Virus record (IMG/VR): IMGVR_UViG_2571042390_000001
Reading direction: 5' to 3' (one strand)
From: a virus
Lineage: Duplodnaviria; Heunggongvirae; Uroviricota; Caudoviricetes
DNA: 64,000 nt
Made by a program: the position numbers and the translations under genes
The notes under the pieces: model-generated
Seen by the model: the letters and a program-made list of their open reading frames with translations, nothing else
Told to the model about the DNA's origin: nothing
The model's database searches: none
Part shown: positions 2,347 through 12,701 of the stretch, piece by piece
Numbering within the stretch: position 1 is the first letter of the stretch
Layout of the letters: each line of letters begins with the position of its first letter

Positions 2347-2919
2347 ATGCTGATTGGCTACATACGTGTGTCAACAAATGACCAAAACACAGATTTGCAA
2401 CGCAATGCATTAATGTGCGCAGGATGTGAACAGATTTTTGAGGACAAAATGAGCGGAACCAAGTCGGAACGACCAGGCCTGAAACGCGCTTTAAAGTGCC
2501 TTAAAAGAGGGGATACATTGGTGGTCTGGAAGCTGGATCGGTTGGGTAGAAGAATGAAACACCTCATTGCTCTCACAGAAGAGTTACGCGCAAAAGGTGT
2601 CAATTTTCGCAGTCTGACGGATTCAATCGATACCAGCACTCCGATGGGAAGGTTCTTTTTTCATATGATGGGTGCACTGGCAGAAATGGAGCGTGAACTG
2701 ATAGTTGAGCGCACGCTGGCAGGACTGGCTGCTGCGCGAGCACAAGGAAGAGTTGGAGGACGTCGCCCGAAACTGACGAAGGAGCAGCATGAGCAGATCG
2801 CAAGATTGCTCCAGAAAGGGTATGACAGAAAGCGGCTGGCAATTATCTATGATATTGGACTGTCAACGATCTACCGCTATCACCCTGTTGGGACTGTCAT
2901 AACGCAACCTGAAATGTAA
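2347..2919 (+). CDS. cin: Serine DNA invertase (Cin/Gin/Hin/Pin family)
   Basis: 190 aa starting MLIGYIRVSTNDQNTDLQRNAL with catalytic serine context and C-terminal HTH (GYDRKRLAIIYDIGLSTIYRY); RBS aagggag upstream of ATG 2347. Confidence 0.9.
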   Translation: MLIGYIRVSTNDQNTDLQRNALMCAGCEQIFEDKMSGTKSERPGLKRALKCLKRGDTLVVWKLDRLGRRMKHLIALTEELRAKGVNFRSLTDSIDTSTPMGRFFFHMMGALAEMERELIVERTLAGLAAARAQGRVGGRRPKLTKEQHEQIARLLQKGYDRKRLAIIYDIGLSTIYRYHPVGTVITQPEM

Positions 2920-3135
2920 TTCTTTTTCAAATAATGAAACGCCGCGTGGATGCCATTTATCGCACAAGATAGAGTGCATTTATCGCGCGGCGCATCATCA
3001 TTTGTTGATATGCGAATGTATCCAATAAGCATATGTCTCCCTTGTATGCTAAGGATACGATCCTAGAAGATGTCCTGTAAGGAAATAACAAACTGACTAA
3101 GTTAGTGGCGCATTAGATGTTATTTCTGGAGGGGT

Positions 3136-3462
3136 ATGTTTGCAGATTATGAAAATCTGGCTGTAGTAGTCATAACATCCCTACTAAGTGGAACCGGCGT
3201 ATTCCTTCTCGGAGTTAGAGACGGGCGCATTTCTGCGTCCCTGCTCAATCTTGCGAGTGAATTGTTTACTGCGGTAACAGCCGGGCTTGCGGGGTATGGG
3301 GTGGCGGTTAGCCAAGAATGGCCTGAAGGTATCATTTTCTGCGTTGTTCTGATTGCCAGTAACAACGGTAGTGAAATTTTACAGGGCTTGAAGTCCAGAG
3401 CTAGTTACGTCTTGAATCTCTTAAGCGTAATAGCGAATGGGGGAAAAGGTGGAGAGAAATAA
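3136..3462 (+). CDS. Holin-like membrane protein (LydA-like by size and position)
   Basis: 108 aa with three hydrophobic segments; first gene of a plus-strand operon after the invertase. Confidence 0.45.
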   Translation: MFADYENLAVVVITSLLSGTGVFLLGVRDGRISASLLNLASELFTAVTAGLAGYGVAVSQEWPEGIIFCVVLIASNNGSEILQGLKSRASYVLNLLSVIANGGKGGEK

Positions 3463-3908
3463 TGGGTAACTTTGGAAATTATTTCATTTTTATCATGGCA
3501 TTTGTTGCCATCATTGACCGTTTCATTTTTCGTCGCAAGAGTGTTGAGATTTTGAGTATTGGTGACGCTGTAGTGAAAGAATCCGCTATAGCATTTCCTG
3601 TTTCGCTACGTGTTAAGCGAAGCTGGGTCAGCAATGCTCAAATCGAATATTGGTTGCAAGACCTGAAAAATCCATCTGTGGTTATTTCAGGGAAAACGCG
3701 ACCAGTTGACGCCTCAAAACGCGGTGAGAGAGAAGAGTATTTGCTCATCGATACGAAATATCTTGAGCCAACGAAGTGGGATCTGAAAGTCACATTGACT
3801 AACGGTAACTGCCGACTGAATCCGCTTTATCGCATTTTCCCTATCAATGACTGCATAGAGCGCCAGTTTACGATCGAAAAGCGTAAAGGAGACTGGGATG
3901 TCAAATAA
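3462..3908 (+). CDS. Membrane-anchored protein (LydB/antiholin-like by position)
   Basis: 148 aa, N-terminal transmembrane segment; start overlaps upstream stop. Confidence 0.3.
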   Translation: MGNFGNYFIFIMAFVAIIDRFIFRRKSVEILSIGDAVVKESAIAFPVSLRVKRSWVSNAQIEYWLQDLKNPSVVISGKTRPVDASKRGEREEYLLIDTKYLEPTKWDLKVTLTNGNCRLNPLYRIFPINDCIERQFTIEKRKGDWDVK

Positions 3909-4518
3909 GAATAATTATGTTCTTCTTAATTATGATGAGTTAAACGAAAAGGGGCTGGCAAAACTCGTCAAAGAAATCAGCAAAGGTGGTTACAAGATAG
4001 CGAGGGTGATCCCTGCAAGTAATGGCAGGAAGAAAGATGGGATCATGACGCGCACGTTTACCCTTATTGGTATTGATGAACAGACAATGGAAGTTCAGGT
4101 TAACGATACCGGTGATATATCTGGGATCAAACTGAATGGTAAAACAGTACCGTTCAAGCCAGTAAAAACAATGTCGGCTTTGGGGCAATCTCTTGCGGCT
4201 TTATTTAATCGCGGAGCAACTTCTTTCCAGAAGTCATTAGCTCGAAAACTTGCTCGTGCAGCAAAAAATATTGATGACGGAAATAAGAAGCGGCAGGGAG
4301 TTAAATCTAACGCTCAGAAATTAGCTGAAGCGAAAGAATCACGTGATGCACTCCGTGAAGATATCGCTAATGCTAACGACAAACTGTCTAAACTCCAGAG
4401 CAAGTCAGACAAAGTAATGCAAGATACGGGTAACGTTAAAGCTGCCTTGTCTCAGGAAGTAGCTAAGACACGTGCTCTTAAAGAAGAAATCGCGCGCCTG
4501 GAGGATGAGCATGATTAA
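3898..4518 (+). CDS. Hypothetical coiled-coil protein (Hdf-like position in a dar-type operon)
   Basis: 206 aa, charged C-terminal half with heptad-like repeats. Confidence 0.5.
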   Translation: MSNKNNYVLLNYDELNEKGLAKLVKEISKGGYKIARVIPASNGRKKDGIMTRTFTLIGIDEQTMEVQVNDTGDISGIKLNGKTVPFKPVKTMSALGQSLAALFNRGATSFQKSLARKLARAAKNIDDGNKKRQGVKSNAQKLAEAKESRDALREDIANANDKLSKLQSKSDKVMQDTGNVKAALSQEVAKTRALKEEIARLEDEHD

Positions 4519-6436
4519 CAATCCTTTACGAATTAATATTCAGTCTACTTTTGCTGATACGATCCCCGGCTATGTGCCAAGTCGCTGGTCTTCAGAAGAA
4601 TTAAGCGAAGATGACCTGATTTTTGAGGCGGCGACCTTAGAAGATATTGAGCTTGCCTATATGGGCAATGAAATTCTGGTTGTGTCTGACGAAGCTATGT
4701 TTGAGTCCATAACTACAACCAGAATTCGGTTAGCTCAAACAATGCGAGCTTTCGTCCGTGCGCTGAATCGTGGCCTGAATGGTACGAATATTATGGCAGG
4801 GACTGATGAAGCCGGGACCGATGAAAATGGACGTAATTGTATTGGTGGTGCGATTATCGGTCGTGTACGTCGGGTAGCTAATATCCCTGTTTTGACCGCG
4901 CAGATACCGCTTACTGACGGGCAGAGTACAAGCATAATTTTCCACTCTCCAACAGCTGACGGGGCAAAAATAAAGAGTAACGACGAGCTTGTTGCATTTC
5001 AGTTTTTACTTAATAAGCGTAACGTAACTCACGTTGTCGCCCCGATTGGTGGGAGAGATGTTTCTTTAAGCCAGGTATGCCAGGCGCTATCTAATTTGAT
5101 TGAGCGTAACAGCGAAAAATTTAAGAAAGCAAAAGAGCGCCAGGACAAAATGAAGGCAGATATTGAGAGTTATCTCAATGAAGCAGATAAACTGGCAGAA
5201 GAACGGTCAATAATGATTGATCAGGTGGACGTTGCGCAACGTGGGCTGACTGAAAAGCGTGCTGCTCTTACGGAGATGCAAAAAAAACTTGATGCCCAGA
5301 AAGCCATCAACGAGGAATTACAAGAAAAACGCGATAAATTGTTGTCTGCTAAAGGTGAAAAAACGAAGGAACGAGCGTTTAGTGACCAGCTGCGACATGT
5401 AAAACATAATCTTGCCATTGACGGAAAAACAGTGCTGGATAATGGCGCTGAAGTTAATTATATCACGTCCGGCAGTGACAATTTCGTTACGATAGTAGCA
5501 CCTGAAGGTAAATTCAGTATTGATGCCAGTGCTGTCAAAGGAGGCAGTTTGGCAGATGCTGCAACCAAATTACTTAAAGCCTACCGAGAGCATAACGCAG
5601 ATAAATATAAAGTTGATGTGTTACCAGGCCAGCAGGAAGACCCCGAACCACCACAGACAGACCCCGAGACGAACCCAGTATCACAACCAGAGAGCCAGGA
5701 TGTAGGTAAATACCACTATGCACTTCAATCTCGCCCGGCTGGTGTTGGTGCTGTGCCGGATGGAAATAAAGCCGTGCTTGATCGTCCTGACCAGGCTGAT
5801 CAGTATTACGAATATGCTCGTCACGGTATCATTACGTATGACCGTAAACTGACAGATGAAGAAGTCAGCCAGTACGAGTTGCTCTATCTTCCTGATGAAG
5901 ATGAGCTGAAAGATTTTGCAGGCCAATTGGTTGTGTCCAGCATGTCGAAACATATTGATGGCTATGTAGACCTGTTTGGCAGTGACCTGAAAACATTCAA
6001 GGCGCAAGTGAAAATTCTTTTCCGCAAAGCGTTTCCAAACGTGGCGTATCCACTTGGTGATGGGGAGAACCTTTTCATTATGGACGTGTATAACGCCCTT
6101 CAAAATCATTCAAGCGAAGTAAAAACAGAGCATGTGGTTGAGCCGGAATCACAACCACAACCAGCACCAGAACAGGAGCCGGAGCCAGAAGAAGCTGGTG
6201 AATCAGCAAGTGAAGCTGATCAGGAGGCAGATAAAGCACTGGAGTACCTGAAATCCGTGCCGGAGCAGTTTACATCCCGCGATCTGACGGTCATCAGTGC
6301 TGAACTTGATCATGTGCAGGAAGCAGCAAACGCTCTAATCAGCGCAGGTCGATACGACGAGAACGAAGCCACTGTTGGTGCAGCAGTTGACTACCTGATC
6401 AACATTCTGGCTGAAATTCAGCAGGGAGGTGCTTAA
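4511..6436 (+). CDS. Large virion-type protein, DarA-like by size and operon position
   Basis: About 642 aa; GGAGG RBS 7 nt upstream of ATG 4511; coiled-coil core and Pro/Glu-rich linkers (EDPEPPQTDPETNPVSQPESQ, EPESQPQPAPEQEPEPEE). Confidence 0.5.
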   Translation: MINNPLRINIQSTFADTIPGYVPSRWSSEELSEDDLIFEAATLEDIELAYMGNEILVVSDEAMFESITTTRIRLAQTMRAFVRALNRGLNGTNIMAGTDEAGTDENGRNCIGGAIIGRVRRVANIPVLTAQIPLTDGQSTSIIFHSPTADGAKIKSNDELVAFQFLLNKRNVTHVVAPIGGRDVSLSQVCQALSNLIERNSEKFKKAKERQDKMKADIESYLNEADKLAEERSIMIDQVDVAQRGLTEKRAALTEMQKKLDAQKAINEELQEKRDKLLSAKGEKTKERAFSDQLRHVKHNLAIDGKTVLDNGAEVNYITSGSDNFVTIVAPEGKFSIDASAVKGGSLADAATKLLKAYREHNADKYKVDVLPGQQEDPEPPQTDPETNPVSQPESQDVGKYHYALQSRPAGVGAVPDGNKAVLDRPDQADQYYEYARHGIITYDRKLTDEEVSQYELLYLPDEDELKDFAGQLVVSSMSKHIDGYVDLFGSDLKTFKAQVKILFRKAFPNVAYPLGDGENLFIMDVYNALQNHSSEVKTEHVVEPESQPQPAPEQEPEPEEAGESASEADQEADKALEYLKSVPEQFTSRDLTVISAELDHVQEAANALISAGRYDENEATVGAAVDYLINILAEIQQGGA

Positions 6437-6897: not shown

Positions 6898-9800
6898 TTG
6901 AACAAGTCAGTTACTTCCGCGCTATCCGAAGCAGCAGACATTAACAGTGTTATTGCGCTGGTTTCTTCATTAGAGAGGCGAGAAACACGCCAGGGGCGCA
7001 GTAGTTACGTAGTCACCAGTAAAGGGGCAGAGGTAAAGACGGCTTTTAAGGTCGTTGATGCCAGCAGTCTGATCATTTCGAACAACCTTGACGGTACGAT
7101 TAATCCGGCCTTCCCGGAAGAACTCCAGCCACGTGACCGTACACGGCTATCAAGCAAACTCCAGGTTAACCGTATTGCCTCCAATTTACGCCCGGCACAA
7201 TTAACGGATTCCGGCATGAGCAGCCACGGAGCGCCGATAGTTGGTCCGGACAACGTTGTTGAATCCGGCAACGGAAGGAGCATGGGTATCTGGCGTGCCT
7301 ATGAGCAAGGGCAGGCGGATGAATATCGCCAGTACCTGATCGATCATGCAAAAGAGTTTGGTCTGAATCCTGACGACATTTCACAAATGTCTATGCCCGT
7401 ATTGGTGCGAGAAAGACTCACAGATGTAGACCGCGCACAATTTGCCCGCGATTCAAACATCAGCGATCTGCAAGAGATGGCTGCAAGTGAAAAAGCGTAT
7501 GCGGATGCGCAATTTCTCACTGAGAGCGTCATGGCGCTATTTAATCCTTCAGATGATGGAAATCTACTGGCGCGGTCCAATGATGCGTTTATTCGTGCGT
7601 TTTTGCGCGAAATAGGTGATACGGCGACGGCAGGTTTGCTTACTGCCGATGGGCGTCCAACGAAACAACTTATCGACCGCATCCAGAATGCAATTTTTGC
7701 CAAAGCGTACAAGGATGAAAGGCTTGTTCGGCTGGTGGCGGAAGAGCCAGATCCGGAAATGCGTAACATTCTTACCGCATTAAATACGGCAGCCAGCGAT
7801 TTTGCGCAAATGCAGTCGCTTTCAGGTGATGTTCACCATGACACGGTAACCGGACTGGTAGACGGTATAGAGCAATTGAATGGTCTGGATAAACAGGCTA
7901 TTGCCGCGCTACAGGAAGCAATTAACCTTGTTCGTGAAGCAAAAGATAACGGTCAGGCAGTAGAAGAGGTGATCGCACAGCGTGGATTGTTTGGAGATAG
8001 CACTCCGGAAGCAGAAGCGCTTGCTCTGTTTATTGTTGCCAACAACCGAAGCGCTAAGCGAATGGGGGCAGCTTTCAAGAAACTGGCGCAAAAAATTAAC
8101 GATGAACTTATTCACCAGCAACAAGCGTTAGGCGATATGTTCGGCGGCGGAGATGTCGATCTGCGTAGCATTTTATCTGCCGTTTCTGATGAAATTGAGG
8201 CTGAGTATGGCGAAGGTAAAGGGCTTAATTTCGCCATGTTTGAATCGGTTTCAGGAGAGGTCGAACCATACATTTCAAAGCTAATTGCTGATGCGACCAG
8301 CGTGGAGGACTTGATCCGAATCGTGAAGGTGTCAGAAAAAATTAAGGAGTCCGCAAAAAAAATAAAGCGCAATGTATTTTTGGAACTTGGTTTTTATATT
8401 CGCAATGTCACCGTTAATGAGATTAAGGAGTGGGCTAAACGTTATGGATACAGCGACGCTGTGTTAACAACGATGTTATTGTCTTATCAACGCAGCAATT
8501 TTTATGCTAACGCACTGCGTGACGCGATTGAAAAAGGAGATGAAGCTCCTTCGCTCGCAGATGAAAGAAATATTGATTGTGATATTGAAACGTTTTGCAA
8601 CATATCAGAAGAAGGCGTGCCCGCTGAACAATTTATACGTGTTTTACATAATGCAGCAAAACATATTCCTGATGACTTTAGTATTGATGAATTGCGCAAT
8701 GGTTGTCTTGTTTGGTTAGGTAACTATTTAAAATCTCCAGCGTCTATTGCAGAGAAAACAGCTTTAAGATTTAGAAAGGAAATGAATAAAGCTGGAAGCG
8801 CAGAAGAGATGGTGTGCATAATCCAAAATACTTTGAAGTTATTCAAAAAGAGCTTGCATAATATCGACGATATTATGGCGGCTGGTAGGAAAATAACAGC
8901 CAGTGTCGGAGTTAGCTCTGAACTAACGGCAGAGGAGATCGCTGATGCGTATATTGAGACACTTGTCAGGCTTAAGGAGATAGTGGAATTAGCAGAGCAT
9001 TCCTCATATTACGGAATCAAGGAGCGTGTTGACTTTACTATAGAACAAATCAATAAAGTTAGGTCAAATAAGGAAAAACTCACTGACTACCTTGCTGAGG
9101 TTTTGCACCAGAATGATCATGGGATTGGATATGATCTGAAAAAAATGCTTGTTTTTAATCTGGACATACCGGAAGACTTGCAAGCAGAACTATATGAAAT
9201 AGCTTCATTAACACGTGGACAAAAAGCCTATCCTAATGCGCTTGAAAATGTAGTACATAAAAAAGTCAGAGCCGCATTTGACATGATTCTTGAATCGTCA
9301 AATGTGTCACATGACCAGTCTAAGGAATGGAGTCGTGGGATTGCTATTTCTGATGAAGCAGAGCAGTTAAGTGGTCACGATAATGAAACTTTCTCCCGTA
9401 AAGCATACAGTATTCGCGAGACGATTGAAAAAGCCTATATTATTTCAGGAGGGACTTTATCTACATTAAAAAATATTAACCACAAGAACAATGTTCGTGC
9501 TTTTGCAAGTCGAAATGGGAATATAACAATTGATGCTAATAGTGATCACGAGCGTGTATTATGGCATGAAATAGGTCACCATATAGAACATTCAAATCCC
9601 CATCTATTGGAGAGGGCCAAAGCCTTCATTAAATCAAAAACTAACGGTAAAGTTTCTTATCATAATATTGGTAGCCGTGGCAGTGCTGAGTATTTGGTGC
9701 GAACCGACCTAAGTCATGGATATATGTCTAAAATTTATATGGAAAATACGGTAAGTTCTGTCAGCGGCAGATTTATATCAAAGCCACCTGCATTAAGCAA

Positions 9801-9939
9801 TTGCAGGGCGACTGAGATTTTTTCTATGGCCTTGCAGATGTATGCCGATCCGGAGCAGGCGACTAACTCTGTATTAAACAATGACGGCGTGCTGGAATTT
9901 TTCTTGGGATGTATGAAGGAGTTGCAAAATGAAGTATAG
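6898..9939 (+). CDS. Large protein with C-terminal HExxH zinc-metallopeptidase-like motif (DdrB-like position)
   Basis: 1013 aa; TTG start after RBS aagggga; motif ERVLWHEIGHHIEHSN near the C-terminus. Confidence 0.6.
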   Translation: MNKSVTSALSEAADINSVIALVSSLERRETRQGRSSYVVTSKGAEVKTAFKVVDASSLIISNNLDGTINPAFPEELQPRDRTRLSSKLQVNRIASNLRPAQLTDSGMSSHGAPIVGPDNVVESGNGRSMGIWRAYEQGQADEYRQYLIDHAKEFGLNPDDISQMSMPVLVRERLTDVDRAQFARDSNISDLQEMAASEKAYADAQFLTESVMALFNPSDDGNLLARSNDAFIRAFLREIGDTATAGLLTADGRPTKQLIDRIQNAIFAKAYKDERLVRLVAEEPDPEMRNILTALNTAASDFAQMQSLSGDVHHDTVTGLVDGIEQLNGLDKQAIAALQEAINLVREAKDNGQAVEEVIAQRGLFGDSTPEAEALALFIVANNRSAKRMGAAFKKLAQKINDELIHQQQALGDMFGGGDVDLRSILSAVSDEIEAEYGEGKGLNFAMFESVSGEVEPYISKLIADATSVEDLIRIVKVSEKIKESAKKIKRNVFLELGFYIRNVTVNEIKEWAKRYGYSDAVLTTMLLSYQRSNFYANALRDAIEKGDEAPSLADERNIDCDIETFCNISEEGVPAEQFIRVLHNAAKHIPDDFSIDELRNGCLVWLGNYLKSPASIAEKTALRFRKEMNKAGSAEEMVCIIQNTLKLFKKSLHNIDDIMAAGRKITASVGVSSELTAEEIADAYIETLVRLKEIVELAEHSSYYGIKERVDFTIEQINKVRSNKEKLTDYLAEVLHQNDHGIGYDLKKMLVFNLDIPEDLQAELYEIASLTRGQKAYPNALENVVHKKVRAAFDMILESSNVSHDQSKEWSRGIAISDEAEQLSGHDNETFSRKAYSIRETIEKAYIISGGTLSTLKNINHKNNVRAFASRNGNITIDANSDHERVLWHEIGHHIEHSNPHLLERAKAFIKSKTNGKVSYHNIGSRGSAEYLVRTDLSHGYMSKIYMENTVSSVSGRFISKPPALSNCRATEIFSMALQMYADPEQATNSVLNNDGVLEFFLGCMKELQNEV

Positions 9940-10222
9940 CATTGTGAGTCCCGCTGGGATTAGAGGGATTGTTGAATGCTCTGATGACGGCACATTGCGT
10001 ATATTTGAAGGCGATATTTCGGAAGAAAATATTGCGCAAGATTTACGCTTTATCAACACAAATTCCGCAATGGGGATCGTGAATACCATTCATGCCGATG
10101 GGGTGTTTGTTCTGCGGAGCCTGGAAACTGTTGGCTGGGAGGTTGAGTGGCCAGAGGTGGAAGGAGATCCTGACGACGAAGACGATACTGGCGAATCATA
10201 TCAAGACATTGATGTGAATTGA
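9929..10222 (+). CDS. Hypothetical acidic protein
   Basis: 97 aa, start overlaps upstream stop; acidic C-terminus (EGDPDDEDDTGESYQDIDVN). Confidence 0.45.
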   Translation: MKYSIVSPAGIRGIVECSDDGTLRIFEGDISEENIAQDLRFINTNSAMGIVNTIHADGVFVLRSLETVGWEVEWPEVEGDPDDEDDTGESYQDIDVN

Positions 10223-10235
10223 TATGATTGATAAT

Positions 10236-10258
10236 CCCGCCGTCAGGCGGGTTTTTTT
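10236..10258. terminator. Bidirectional intrinsic terminator
   Basis: cccgcc-gtca-ggcggg followed by TTTTTTT; lies between convergent genes. Confidence 0.65.
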
Positions 10259-10520
10259 AGCGTGGTGTAAGAATAAATTCAGGATGCTCTCCAGCAAGCA
10301 ATAACAGGTACTCAAATTCACCAGCCATAAGGCGTCTCGGTTTATTTCTATCTTCTTTGAATTGCCAAGCCCGGAGTTGATACCCCATTTTGTGGGCTAA
10401 CTCCGTTTGCGTTAGCCCCATTCGCTGGCGGATTTCAATTATAGTTTCCGGGGTGTTTGGTGGGAGTTGTTTCACAATATGCCCTTTGCCAATGCTGTGA
10501 TTCGCAACGAAGTATATCAT
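10257..10520 (-). CDS. XRE-type HTH DNA-binding protein
   Basis: 87 aa; HTH segment RMGLTQTELAHKMGYQLRAWQFKE; 12 bp downstream of partner gene. Confidence 0.6.
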   Translation of the reverse strand: MIYFVANHSIGKGHIVKQLPPNTPETIIEIRQRMGLTQTELAHKMGYQLRAWQFKEDRNKPRRLMAGEFEYLLLLAGEHPEFILTPR

Positions 10521-10532
10521 CGTTGAATCGAT

Positions 10533-10835
10533 TCACAGAGCTGCGCCGAATAGACCGCAGCATGGCATCCCTTCATCACAGTACCTGGCCCATTCTTTTT
10601 GGCATTCTTCTGTTTGCGCGTATTGGCTTAACGCGTCATCCAGCATATCCCAGGCCTTATAGGAATCCTCTGCAACGCTAAACAAAGTCCTGCCTTCCCG
10701 GCTTAGAATTTGCAGATTGTAAATGTTTTCATTGCTCAGACATGCGCGGCTGATATGCATGTAAACCGACCATGCAGGAACTCGATTTTTGATAGCAAGT
10801 TGGTGTAATTTGGAATTAATTAAAGAGCTTTTCAT
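10533..10835 (-). CDS. Hypothetical small protein, partner of the HTH gene
   Basis: About 100 aa from ATG 10835 with RBS GGAGAA; Cys-rich C-terminus (CDEGMPCCGLFG). Confidence 0.5.
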   Translation of the reverse strand: MKSSLINSKLHQLAIKNRVPAWSVYMHISRACLSNENIYNLQILSREGRTLFSVAEDSYKAWDMLDDALSQYAQTEECQKEWARYCDEGMPCCGLFGAAL

Positions 10836-11018
10836 GGGATTTCTCCGCAGCAAAGTGGTCAACTTTTTCAATCTTAATGCGCACAATGTGCATATTCAAG
10901 TTTTATTCTTCACTTTGTTACGAGAGGGGCCAGCCAATATTTCTAGTTGAAAAGATCCATCATCAAAAATCACATACTGATTATGCTGCCGCAAACTGAA
11001 AACATTTCGCGGTGACTC

Positions 11019-12701
11019 ATGGCAACGAAAGACAAAAACAAAGGCTTTCTGTCGGCATTGAAGAAAGCCTTCAACAGTGGCGATGTCACGCCTGCCGATC
11101 CGGTCGTTTTTACGAGCGGTCATAGTGTCGTTGCGCGTTCTGGTCTGTCCGCTTTACGTCCGGGGATACTGGGTGGCAATAGCGATGGCATGACAAGCGC
11201 GGCAGATACAGTATCAATTTCGGCAGAACTGCCCGGCGACCGCCTGCAAAAGTACAACATCCTGGAAACGATGGCTAAAAGCCCGACTATCTCGACGGCT
11301 TTAAATATTCACATTGCACATGCGCTTGCGCCTTCAAAAAAAACCGGACAAGCATTCATCCTTTCGCCAAAGGATGGTTCCGATGCCGAGGCAGTAAGTA
11401 GATGTGAAGAGTTAACCGCTGATTTGGGGACGATGATTAATGACGGACTTCCTTCATGGGCCATGATTATGGCGATCTTTGGGGTGTCTTATGTCCGACC
11501 TTATGCTGAACAGGGCAGGGGGATAACAGGCATTGAGTCCAGTTATTACACTCTGCCACACTTCGTCCAGGAGTTTTATCGTGGTAGCCAGCTGGTAGGT
11601 TTCAGTGGTGATTACATTCTGGATACGCATAGTTTGCGCAGAGTAATAACCGAACCGTGGAATCTGGTTTCCATGAAAAATCCCTATTGGACGCCACAGC
11701 ATAAAGTTATTCCGGTTAGCTACGGCACAAAAGGGTACTCACTGTTAAGTGATCAGGCTGATAAGCCGTTAATGGAGACGCAGAATTACGGAACTTCATT
11801 CCTGGAATACAGCTATGAACCTTACCTTAATTTATGTGCTTCGCTCGCCGCGCTGAAATCAACGCGAAATAATGCAGCCAAAATTGACCGCCTGATTGCT
11901 CTTACGACGAACACACTGGACCCGGTTAATGCGGCGAACTATACGCGTGGCGTCAGCCAGGCATTGAAGCGTCATAGTGACCTGGTGGCGCAAAGGTCGA
12001 TTAATGCCAACGCTATTCCGACTGTGCTTAACCATCTGATACCTGTTATGGGAGACGGGAAGAACGGCATCACCATTGATACGCAATCCATACCCGCAGA
12101 TATCAGTGGTATCGAAGACGTTATGTTTCACCTCCGGCAGCTTGCTGCAAGCCTCGGCATTGACGCAACAATGCTTGGCTGGGCTGATCAGATGAGCGGA
12201 GGGCTTGGAGAAGGCGGCTGGCAGCAAACTGCTATCCAGGCTGCATTGCGTGCGAACTGGATCAGACAGGCCGCCCAGCGAACTATTTATCGGCTTCTGG
12301 ACATTCACCTCGCTTATAAATACGGCAAGGTTTACACCGAAACAAACCGCCCTTATGACGTGCAATTCAACTCAATGAACACAGCTATCCAGGAAGAGGA
12401 AAACCGAGAACTGGATGCACGCGCCAACTTTGTTGCTGTCATCTCCCAAATTATGGACCAGATCCAGAACAACCCGAAACTGGCTGGTAGCGACGCGTTT
12501 ATGCGTTATCTGTTCACTGAGCAGTTGCACATCGACGATGACACTCTCAACACCATGATCAAAGAGTTTAAGGCGAATGAATCAGAGCAAAACAACGAGC
12601 ATGGTATGTACGAATCCGCGCCGTTGTCGTCCGGTGACGATCCGGAAAACTGGACGCCAGAACAGTTAATAAACTTTGCAAAATTTGTGATGAGCAATTA
12701 A
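11019..12701 (+). CDS. Hypothetical head-morphogenesis protein, possibly portal
   Basis: 560 aa; size, acidic C-terminus and position directly before a putative head-processing gene; no diagnostic motif verified. Confidence 0.4.
   Translation: MATKDKNKGFLSALKKAFNSGDVTPADPVVFTSGHSVVARSGLSALRPGILGGNSDGMTSAADTVSISAELPGDRLQKYNILETMAKSPTISTALNIHIAHALAPSKKTGQAFILSPKDGSDAEAVSRCEELTADLGTMINDGLPSWAMIMAIFGVSYVRPYAEQGRGITGIESSYYTLPHFVQEFYRGSQLVGFSGDYILDTHSLRRVITEPWNLVSMKNPYWTPQHKVIPVSYGTKGYSLLSDQADKPLMETQNYGTSFLEYSYEPYLNLCASLAALKSTRNNAAKIDRLIALTTNTLDPVNAANYTRGVSQALKRHSDLVAQRSINANAIPTVLNHLIPVMGDGKNGITIDTQSIPADISGIEDVMFHLRQLAASLGIDATMLGWADQMSGGLGEGGWQQTAIQAALRANWIRQAAQRTIYRLLDIHLAYKYGKVYTETNRPYDVQFNSMNTAIQEEENRELDARANFVAVISQIMDQIQNNPKLAGSDAFMRYLFTEQLHIDDDTLNTMIKEFKANESEQNNEHGMYESAPLSSGDDPENWTPEQLINFAKFVMSN

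Follow-up and report, generated by a model that had tools for sequence, protein, structure and literature searches.

The closest described systems to the locus considered here are short operons that include a gene for a small helix-turn-helix (HTH) protein of the Aca type. Aca10 (PDB 7XI5) is encoded in the acrIC7-acrIC6-aca10 operon of Pseudomonas citronellolis (Lee et al. 2022, PMC9410881), and its experimentally bound site, IR2, is a 21-bp repeat of 10+1+10 design (AATACGCTCA-T-TGAGCGTATT) that overlaps the -35 and -10 elements (PMC9410881). A consensus operator, ATGCGCACATTGTGCGCTTT, has been published for Aca6 (Shehreen et al. 2022, PMC9410906), a protein found in Alcanivorax, Xanthomonas, and Comamonas with a link to homologs of AcrIC6 and AcrIF11 (PMC9410906). 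Here we analyze a pair of minus-strand genes located at positions 10257 to 10835 of a 64,000-nucleotide stretch of DNA (referred to below as the window) from a virus of the Caudoviricetes (IMG/VR record IMGVR_UViG_2571042390_000001). The pair, which encodes a protein of 100 amino acids (aa) followed by a small HTH protein, lies beside the dar operon of a P1-family, D6-like phage-plasmid. Our analysis favors, with a probability of roughly 0.55, the reading that it is a self-contained bicistronic operon of the acr-aca type that carries cargo and represses itself and that its payload, the 100-aa protein, is likely to have an anti-defense role.

A minus-strand operon with its own expression signals

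The features of the operon are given below, from the promoter to the end of transcription.

10871-10899, minus strand: sigma-70-type promoter, with -35 TTGAAT (10899-10894), a 17-nt spacer, and -10 TAAGAT (10876-10871), read off the sequence
10876-10896, minus strand: predicted operator, a 21-bp inverted repeat, AATATGCACA-T-TGTGCGCATT, which overlaps the -35 and -10 elements
10843-10846, minus strand: Shine-Dalgarno sequence GGAG of the 100-aa gene, 7 nt before ATG 10835, read off the sequence
10533-10835, minus strand: gene for the 100-aa protein ("X100"), the presumed cargo or effector, with an ATG start and GGAG 7 nt upstream
10257-10475, minus strand (open reading frame to ATG 10520): gene for an XRE/MqsA-type HTH protein, an Aca-like putative autorepressor; 72 aa from GTG 10475, 87 aa as the full open reading frame
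10236-10258, both strands: hairpin CCCGCC-GTCA-GGCGGG (10236-10251) plus a T7 run, between the converging stops at 10222 and 10257, from a terminator scan

The two open reading frames (ORFs) that the initial annotation placed 12 bp apart on the minus strand (10533-10835, 100 aa; 10257-10520, 87 aa) are confirmed, the distance becoming 57 bp if GTG 10475 is the start of the second. Both genes are genuine and under purifying selection, because the ratio of nonsynonymous to synonymous substitution (dN/dS) of the 100-aa gene, calculated against the 87%-identical Logan contig L003, is 0.17 and that of the HTH gene is 0.08, the range for the neighboring DdrB, 97-aa ORF, portal, and Pro genes being 0.04 to 0.11. 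The suggestion that the pair is a moron, that is, a regulatory unit carried as cargo, holds as well. It is oriented opposite to its neighbors, it has its own promoter with an embedded operator, a Shine-Dalgarno sequence, and a hairpin, no counterpart of it exists in P1, P7, or D6, and its module occurs in only 5 of 5,426 complete Escherichia coli genomes, in each case on a plasmid of about 90 kb. Likewise, the module was found in 3 of the approximately 120 PLSDB plasmids that share the portal region.

The hairpin had been described as a bidirectional terminator shared with the converging operon, a description that is only partly retained: it folds on both strands (-15.4 kcal/mol on the plus strand and -12.6 kcal/mol on the minus strand), but a U7 tail follows it on the plus strand only, the minus-strand tail being AUUAUCAAUC. 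It is the terminator of the dar operon and probably a weaker stop for the minus-strand operon. No structured RNA was detected between the two genes (hairpin z-score of -1.3), and the segment from 9800 to 11200 has no match in Rfam.

A putative HTH autorepressor related to Aca10, Aca3, Aca6, and MqsA

The XRE-type HTH proposed for the second gene is borne out by matches to Pfam HTH_3 and MqsA and to PHROG 7950 and by an AlphaFold2 (AF2) model that consists of a single four-helix domain and nothing else. Library scans as a whole gave generic or weak matches only (Pfam HTH_3, MqsA HTH, HipB, Xre-antitoxin, and PHROG 7950, "transcriptional repressor"). A profile of the HTH family searched against the PDB matched the C-terminal HTH of MqsA (2.8e-5), Aca3 (9VT3; 4.1e-5), and Aca10 (7XI5; 4.5e-4), and a single-sequence search of solved structures returned Aca10 as the top match. 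For comparison by hhalign, Aca families were built from the sequences in the supplement of Shehreen et al. 2022. The HTH protein scored 97.2% with Aca10 (51 columns, 37% identity), 96.9% with Aca3 (38 columns), 96.3% with Aca6 (31 columns), 94.4% with MqsA's C-terminal domain (36 columns), and 73.6% with Aca9 (56 columns). Identity to the Aca families is about 32 to 37%, the MqsA HTH scores similarly, and the protein does not fall clearly inside any one family. Judged from these alignments, it appears to be a compact protein of the Aca10/Aca3/Aca6/MqsA kind.

The individual resemblances differ in extent. An N-terminal "TPxxIxxIRxxxGLTQxE.A" motif is shared with Aca3 of Neisseria meningitidis (9VT3) and with the MqsA HTH (3FMY), but the Aca3 operator (TGCTTCTGATAAATCA...) is unrelated to that of the window, and the N-terminal zinc-ribbon domain by which MqsA binds its toxin is absent from our protein, the size of which resembles that of Aca proteins (65 to 70 aa). 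Similarity to Aca6 is confined to the N-terminal half (31 columns), whereas the C-terminal halves differ. Aca10 provides the closest parallel in operon structure, with a small HTH gene in last place (65 aa in Aca10, about 72 aa here) behind one or two small unrelated genes, and its DNA-contacting residue R44 aligns with a conserved Arg of the window protein. On the other hand, the gene upstream of the window HTH is not a known anti-CRISPR, and the host clade is a different one, that of the Enterobacterales phage-plasmids.

The length of the HTH protein was taken from its ORF, which does comprise 87 aa. The product itself, however, probably starts at GTG 10475 and has 72 aa, because all homologs begin at "M..LPPNTPE", GTG 10475 is preceded by the Shine-Dalgarno sequence AAGGG, and the extra N-terminal residues appear disordered (in the AF2 model of the 87-aa ORF, residues 1 to 16 have a predicted local distance difference test score [pLDDT] of <50, and the helices span residues 24-34, 38-45, 49-55, and 68-75). 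The gene called by the Prokaryotic Genome Annotation Pipeline (PGAP) in RefSeq (CRG85_RS26375 in NZ_CP034790.1) corresponds to window positions 10257-10421 and encodes 54 aa, so that helix 1 and the conserved NTPE motif are lost; the Klebsiella and Raoultella homologs are likewise called as proteins of 56 to 58 aa that start inside the domain.

In a tblastn search of 50,697 phage records with the minus-strand HTH, a single weak match was found in a Yersinia phage and none in P1, P7, or D6, and a scan of the genome collection found three distant loci only. Relatives with 40 to 55% identity are encoded by 4,173 PLSDB plasmids, 3,808 of which are conjugative (IncX3, IncI2, and IncL/M examples were examined), as the last, translationally coupled gene of operons of uncharacterized proteins. 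In the relatives on IncX3, IncI2, and IncL/M plasmids and metagenome contigs (L041-L043 and L058-L063), this operon is a fixed DnaJ-180aa-85aa-HTH module with overlapping start and stop codons, in which no partner has a Pfam family. In Serratia elements (L029, positions 2778-3209; L067; L068), the HTH is tandemly duplicated within one 143-aa two-HTH protein, the gene of which follows 186-aa and 89-aa genes and adjoins a Phd/RelE-type pair.

A predicted operator inside the core promoter

The operon promoter lies in the 183 bp upstream of the 100-aa gene, and the predicted operator embedded in it reads, in full, AATATGCACATTGTGCGCATT. Like IR2 of Aca10, it has a 10+1+10 design, lies over the -35 and -10 elements, and shows an outer AATAYG-N9-CRTATT frame that is common to both sites, whereas the inner half-site is GCACA here and GCTCA in Aca10. 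Compared with the published Aca6 operator, ATGCGCACATTGTGCGCTTT, the corresponding window sequence (ATATGCACATTGTGCGCATT) is identical at 17 of 20 positions. Given the HTH homology together with this Aca6/Aca10-like operator, both the regulator protein and its predicted DNA site fit a class of autorepressors that is already documented.

A dyad is found at the same promoter position in nine related loci (L003, L004, L009, L020, L027, L035, L038, L039, and L040), in which its sequence varies by lineage and its symmetry is kept. L003 has a perfect 10+1+10 palindrome, a score reached by 1 of 2000 shuffles. The 21-mer of L004 is identical to that of the window although neither the flanks nor the 100-aa genes align at the DNA level. 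Between L009 and L035, a symmetric double change is seen (TACGCAC...GTGCATA versus TACGTAC...GTACATA), and L027 has two dyads of another sequence but of the same design. Two loci with the HTH gene only, L038 and L039, retain the dyad as well (operators ATGCGCACAATGTGCAT and ATGCGCACAATGTACAT). The promoters of L020 and L040 are stronger than that of the window (TTGACA-GTATGCACAATATGCA-TATAAT, with a 17-nt spacer).

Within the 64-kb window, no further copies of the operator that would indicate a regulon were found, the motif being unique to the operon's own promoter. The same operator was also sought ahead of the plasmid DnaJ-180aa-85aa-HTH modules and was not found there. When viral contigs were scanned for the exact pattern, the same phage-plasmids were returned along with a few unrelated contigs, the latter mostly chance-like. 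On two unrelated viral contigs, the same dyad (ATGTGCACATTGTGCATAT in L051, 124-1003; ATATGCACACTGTGCATAT in L044, 11973-12542) adjoins an HTH gene: in L051 it is located inside a TTGACG-N17-TATAAT promoter ahead of an operon of 132-aa, 49-aa, and 71-aa HTH genes, and in L044 it precedes an HTH-fusion gene by 45 nt.

The 100-aa protein and the exchangeable upstream position

The 100-aa protein has no match in Pfam, PHROG, NCBIfam, or PADLOC, and its family is very small: 4 clusters were found among 5.8 billion proteins, and of the 12 matches that an exhaustive profile search returned from 1.84 billion representatives, about 8 are credible. A scan of the genome collection for the family found nothing. 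Residues VPAW (19-22), G48, E77, W82, R84, Y85, E88, P91, and L100 are conserved. The protein had been called Cys-rich, which is true of the window copy with its 5 Cys residues but is not a family trait: members have 1 to 5, and only C78 is conserved (7 of 8 members). A zinc or Cys-motif protein was accordingly rejected on the basis of the single conserved Cys. The family is soluble and of near-neutral charge (isoelectric point [pI] of 5.4 to 7.8). The AF2 model shows an alpha-beta3-alpha2 fold (pLDDT of 80, predicted template modeling score of 0.71) for which no significant match was found in the PDB or BFVD.

Every P1/D6-like locus found to have the HTH gene carries it at the same position, upstream of the portal gene and converging on the ddrB or hxr-like gene. 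These diverged loci derive from E. coli, Klebsiella, and Raoultella and from contigs of IMG/VR, Logan, and metagenomes and represent several independent lineages. What lies upstream of the HTH gene differs among them: (i) the 100-aa gene only (the window, L003, and L027), (ii) the 100-aa gene plus a DUF905 gene (L004-L008), (iii) a DUF905 gene only (L009, L035, and L036), (iv) the 100-aa gene and DUF905 joined in a frameshifted fusion (L020, L021, and L040), (v) an insertion sequence (IS) (L016), or (vi) no partner (L038 and L039). In the Raoultella-type loci of group iv, a deletion and a frameshift at about 4505-4884 have produced a 102-aa chimeric ORF, and the downstream HTH gene is intact. 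Furthermore, a 39%-identical homolog of the 100-aa protein is encoded without an HTH gene downstream in a 291-kb Citrobacter plasmid (NZ_CP011133.1). The HTH gene is conserved, its cargo is variable, and the two genes are independent of each other.

DUF905 (PF06006) was also considered as the identity of the 100-aa protein and was dismissed, there being no sequence or profile match. It also covers E. coli YkfF (PDB 2HJJ), and on conjugative plasmids it is said to cluster with psiB and psiA (PMC12826799).

Proposed mechanism and alternative explanations

The locus shares with acr-aca operons its location on a mobile element, its short length with a small HTH gene in the 3'-terminal position, an inverted repeat inside the core promoter, and differing small genes upstream of the same HTH gene. 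Host sigma-70 RNA polymerase would start at the promoter at 10871-10899 and transcribe the 100-aa gene and then the HTH gene, and transcription would end at the hairpin that the converging dar operon also uses. A dimer of the approximately 72-aa HTH protein may bind the 21-bp repeat over the -35 and -10 elements and shut the promoter; both the binding and the repression are deduced from sequence. Because the HTH protein would thus switch off its own promoter, expression would be expected to surge upon entry and then to settle at a low steady level in the plasmid-prophage. The 100-aa protein would be the payload, one of an interchangeable set (the 100-aa family, DUF905, or both), and would most likely bind and neutralize a host factor, probably a component of a defense system. 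We infer that an anti-defense or host-neutralizing role is the most likely one because different genes can fill the slot, because the Dar anti-restriction operon is next to it, and because DUF905, its other occupant, is reported to occur near psiB and psiA.

Several observations weigh against this acr-aca-type reading. The 100-aa protein matches no known anti-CRISPR or other anti-defense protein by sequence or fold and does not resemble any anti-CRISPR, or any other protein, of solved structure. The identity of the HTH protein to Aca10, about 37%, is under the thresholds that define the Aca10 family. The window promoter agrees with the consensus at 8 of 12 positions, which is below the threshold of the automated scan, by which it was not called, and the window dyad alone (8/10) is not significant (167/2000 shuffles); the weight of the dyad comes from its conservation across loci and not from its own score. 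The plasmid relatives of the HTH gene stand in a fixed module and not behind variable cargo. In addition, Aca-like HTH proteins are widespread and often unlinked to anti-CRISPR genes (PMC9410906), and they share homology with the antitoxins HigA2 and MqsA. The last point leaves some probability to a toxin-antitoxin-like pair, which the initial annotation had raised. On that account, the locus would be a type II addiction module, encoding a 100-aa toxin first, as in higBA and mqsRA, and an HTH antitoxin and autorepressor second, which stabilizes the plasmid-prophage or aborts infection. Two small, close genes (12 or 57 bp apart) with the HTH gene in second place, the weak MqsA, HipB, and Xre-antitoxin matches, and the decay or loss of the upstream gene in related loci where the HTH gene is intact would all agree with it, and a promoter-embedded operator is typical of such operons too. 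Nevertheless, a toxin-antitoxin pair is unlikely, as three of its defining features, namely, a toxin fold, a neutralizing domain, and strict co-occurrence, fail. The 100-aa protein has no toxin family or fold according to Pfam, NCBIfam, PADLOC, PHROG, and fold searches, with no match to the RelE, HigB, or MqsR folds, and the pI range of its family is not basic. The HTH protein is a bare four-helix domain of about 72 aa, of the Aca-repressor type and with no neutralizing extension, residues 1 to 16 of the longer ORF being modeled with low confidence and absent in homologs. Finally, each gene is found without the other (the 100-aa homolog in the Citrobacter plasmid; the HTH gene in L038 and L039, where it stands alone, and in L009, L035, and L036, where DUF905 is its only partner), and the partner of the HTH gene can be DUF905 or two tandem genes.

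The same self-repressed operon could instead deliver a payload that aids the host or the resident prophage, such as a factor for lysogenic conversion, superinfection exclusion, or defense. The moron-like anatomy of the unit would suit such a payload, as would its location, since the region from dar to the next module is a variable hotspot (isaB/IS1/ssb in P1, nmpC in P7, orf23/24 in D6, a ParE-HTH pair in L004, and an SduA_C gene near ddrB in L009). We give this alternative little credence in view of the lack of a PADLOC defense match for either protein, a regulator and operator of the type documented for anti-defense operons, and an alternative payload, DUF905, that is tied to plasmid establishment regions near psiB. 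It is also conceivable that the HTH protein mainly regulates other functions of the phage-plasmid, such as lysogeny or late genes, and that the upstream proteins are coregulators (e.g., antirepressors) or incidental. The HTH gene is, after all, the conserved element, fixed in position between two late operons and in some loci present without a partner, and some Aca proteins are predicted in published work to control neighboring operons too. Such a wider role is nonetheless quite improbable: the operator occurs once in the 64-kb window, at the operon's own promoter and outside the conserved element upstream of the portal gene, and P1, P7, and D6 do without the HTH gene, which therefore does not belong to core regulation. 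Beyond the acr-aca-type reading of the window pair itself, we tentatively raise a broader proposal, which may well prove incorrect, that the 100-aa family and DUF905 are previously unrecognized anti-defense proteins (anti-CRISPR, anti-restriction, or other) of enterobacterial phage-plasmids under a new Aca10/Aca6-related repressor subfamily.

Genomic setting

The window region belongs to a P1-family, D6-like phage-plasmid, and positions 9900-11100 are 100% identical to E. coli plasmid pTB423 (NZ_CP034790.1, 91.8 kb, nonmobilizable). The local gene order is lydA, lydB, hdf, darA, ddrA, DdrB, the 97-aa ORF, the minus-strand pair, portal prt, pro, and repL. The neighbors of the pair are listed below.

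6898-9939, plus strand: DdrB, 1013 aa
9929-10222, plus strand: 97-aa ORF, an hxr homolog and the last gene of the darA-ddrA-ddrB-hxr operon
11019-12701, plus strand: portal prt

The pair is thus not inserted within the dar operon, as had been stated, but lies after its last gene (9929-10222) and before the portal gene (11019). The 97-aa ORF and the end of ddrB share 11 nt; the ORF is 40% identical to P1 hxr (PHROG 2292). Because this counterpart has no HTH match in Pfam, the annotation of P1 Hxr as an Xre-like repressor looks doubtful. P1 hxr was also considered as the identity of the minus-strand HTH gene, since it likewise lies at the end of the darA-ddrA-ddrB operon of a P1-family genome, and was rejected, because it is on the strand of ddrB, unlike the minus-strand gene, and matches the plus-strand 97-aa ORF.

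Compared with D6, window positions 8244-10966 represent a mosaic replacement, one breakpoint of which lies within ddrB and the other 52 bp before the portal gene. The replaced stretch comprises the C-terminal two-thirds of DdrB, the hxr-like gene, and the minus-strand pair; its D6 equivalent comprises a 454-aa DdrB plus orf24 and orf23. GC content falls to 0.36 to 0.40 over about 8450-9650, and homology to D6 picks up again at 10967. Other P1-like genomes have different genes in place of the pair (isaB, IS1, isaA, and ssb in P1; nmpC in P7; orf23 and orf24 in D6). The comparison with related phages that had been called for thus has two sides: the pair is absent from P1, P7, and D6, but it is not a one-off insertion, since related loci have the HTH gene at the same position.

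All related loci have, ahead of the portal gene, a conserved element that occupies 10964-10985 in the window (...CATAATCAGTATGTGATTTTTG..., minus strand) and is not overlapped by the predicted operator. The GTGATTT at its core is similar to the -22 box of LPlyz, a P1 late promoter (AAGTGATTT), so that this element may be the late promoter of the portal gene. Other accessory genes were seen in this neighborhood in sister phage-plasmids. L009 and L010 carry a 100-aa gene and an SduA_C (Shedu-like) gene at 8751-9667, in the interval from ddrB to ssb, and L004 has a ParE-toxin/HTH pair and a CHAP-domain gene at 2816-3555, in the interval between the repL-side genes and the HTH operon.

Implications

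The operon architecture described here is already known. The new elements are a separate HTH subfamily, related to Aca10/Aca6, that P1-like phage-plasmids carry together with its operator; an orphan family of 100-aa cargo proteins; and the link to DUF905. Two annotations are corrected: the HTH gene is truncated at 54 aa in RefSeq, and hxr of P1 is not the counterpart of the minus-strand HTH gene. The HTH regulator family is very widespread, being encoded on >4,000 plasmids, mostly conjugative, as the last gene of uncharacterized operons. Association with an Aca-type repressor has been the most productive route so far to new anti-defense proteins, and the putative Aca6/Aca10-type repressor/operator pair flags two testable cargo families, the very rare 100-aa protein and DUF905. 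In Enterobacterales, P1-like phage-plasmids commonly serve as carriers of resistance genes, and in them this locus is directly beside the Dar anti-restriction operon. If the broader anti-defense proposal for both families is true, it would provide the first function for DUF905.

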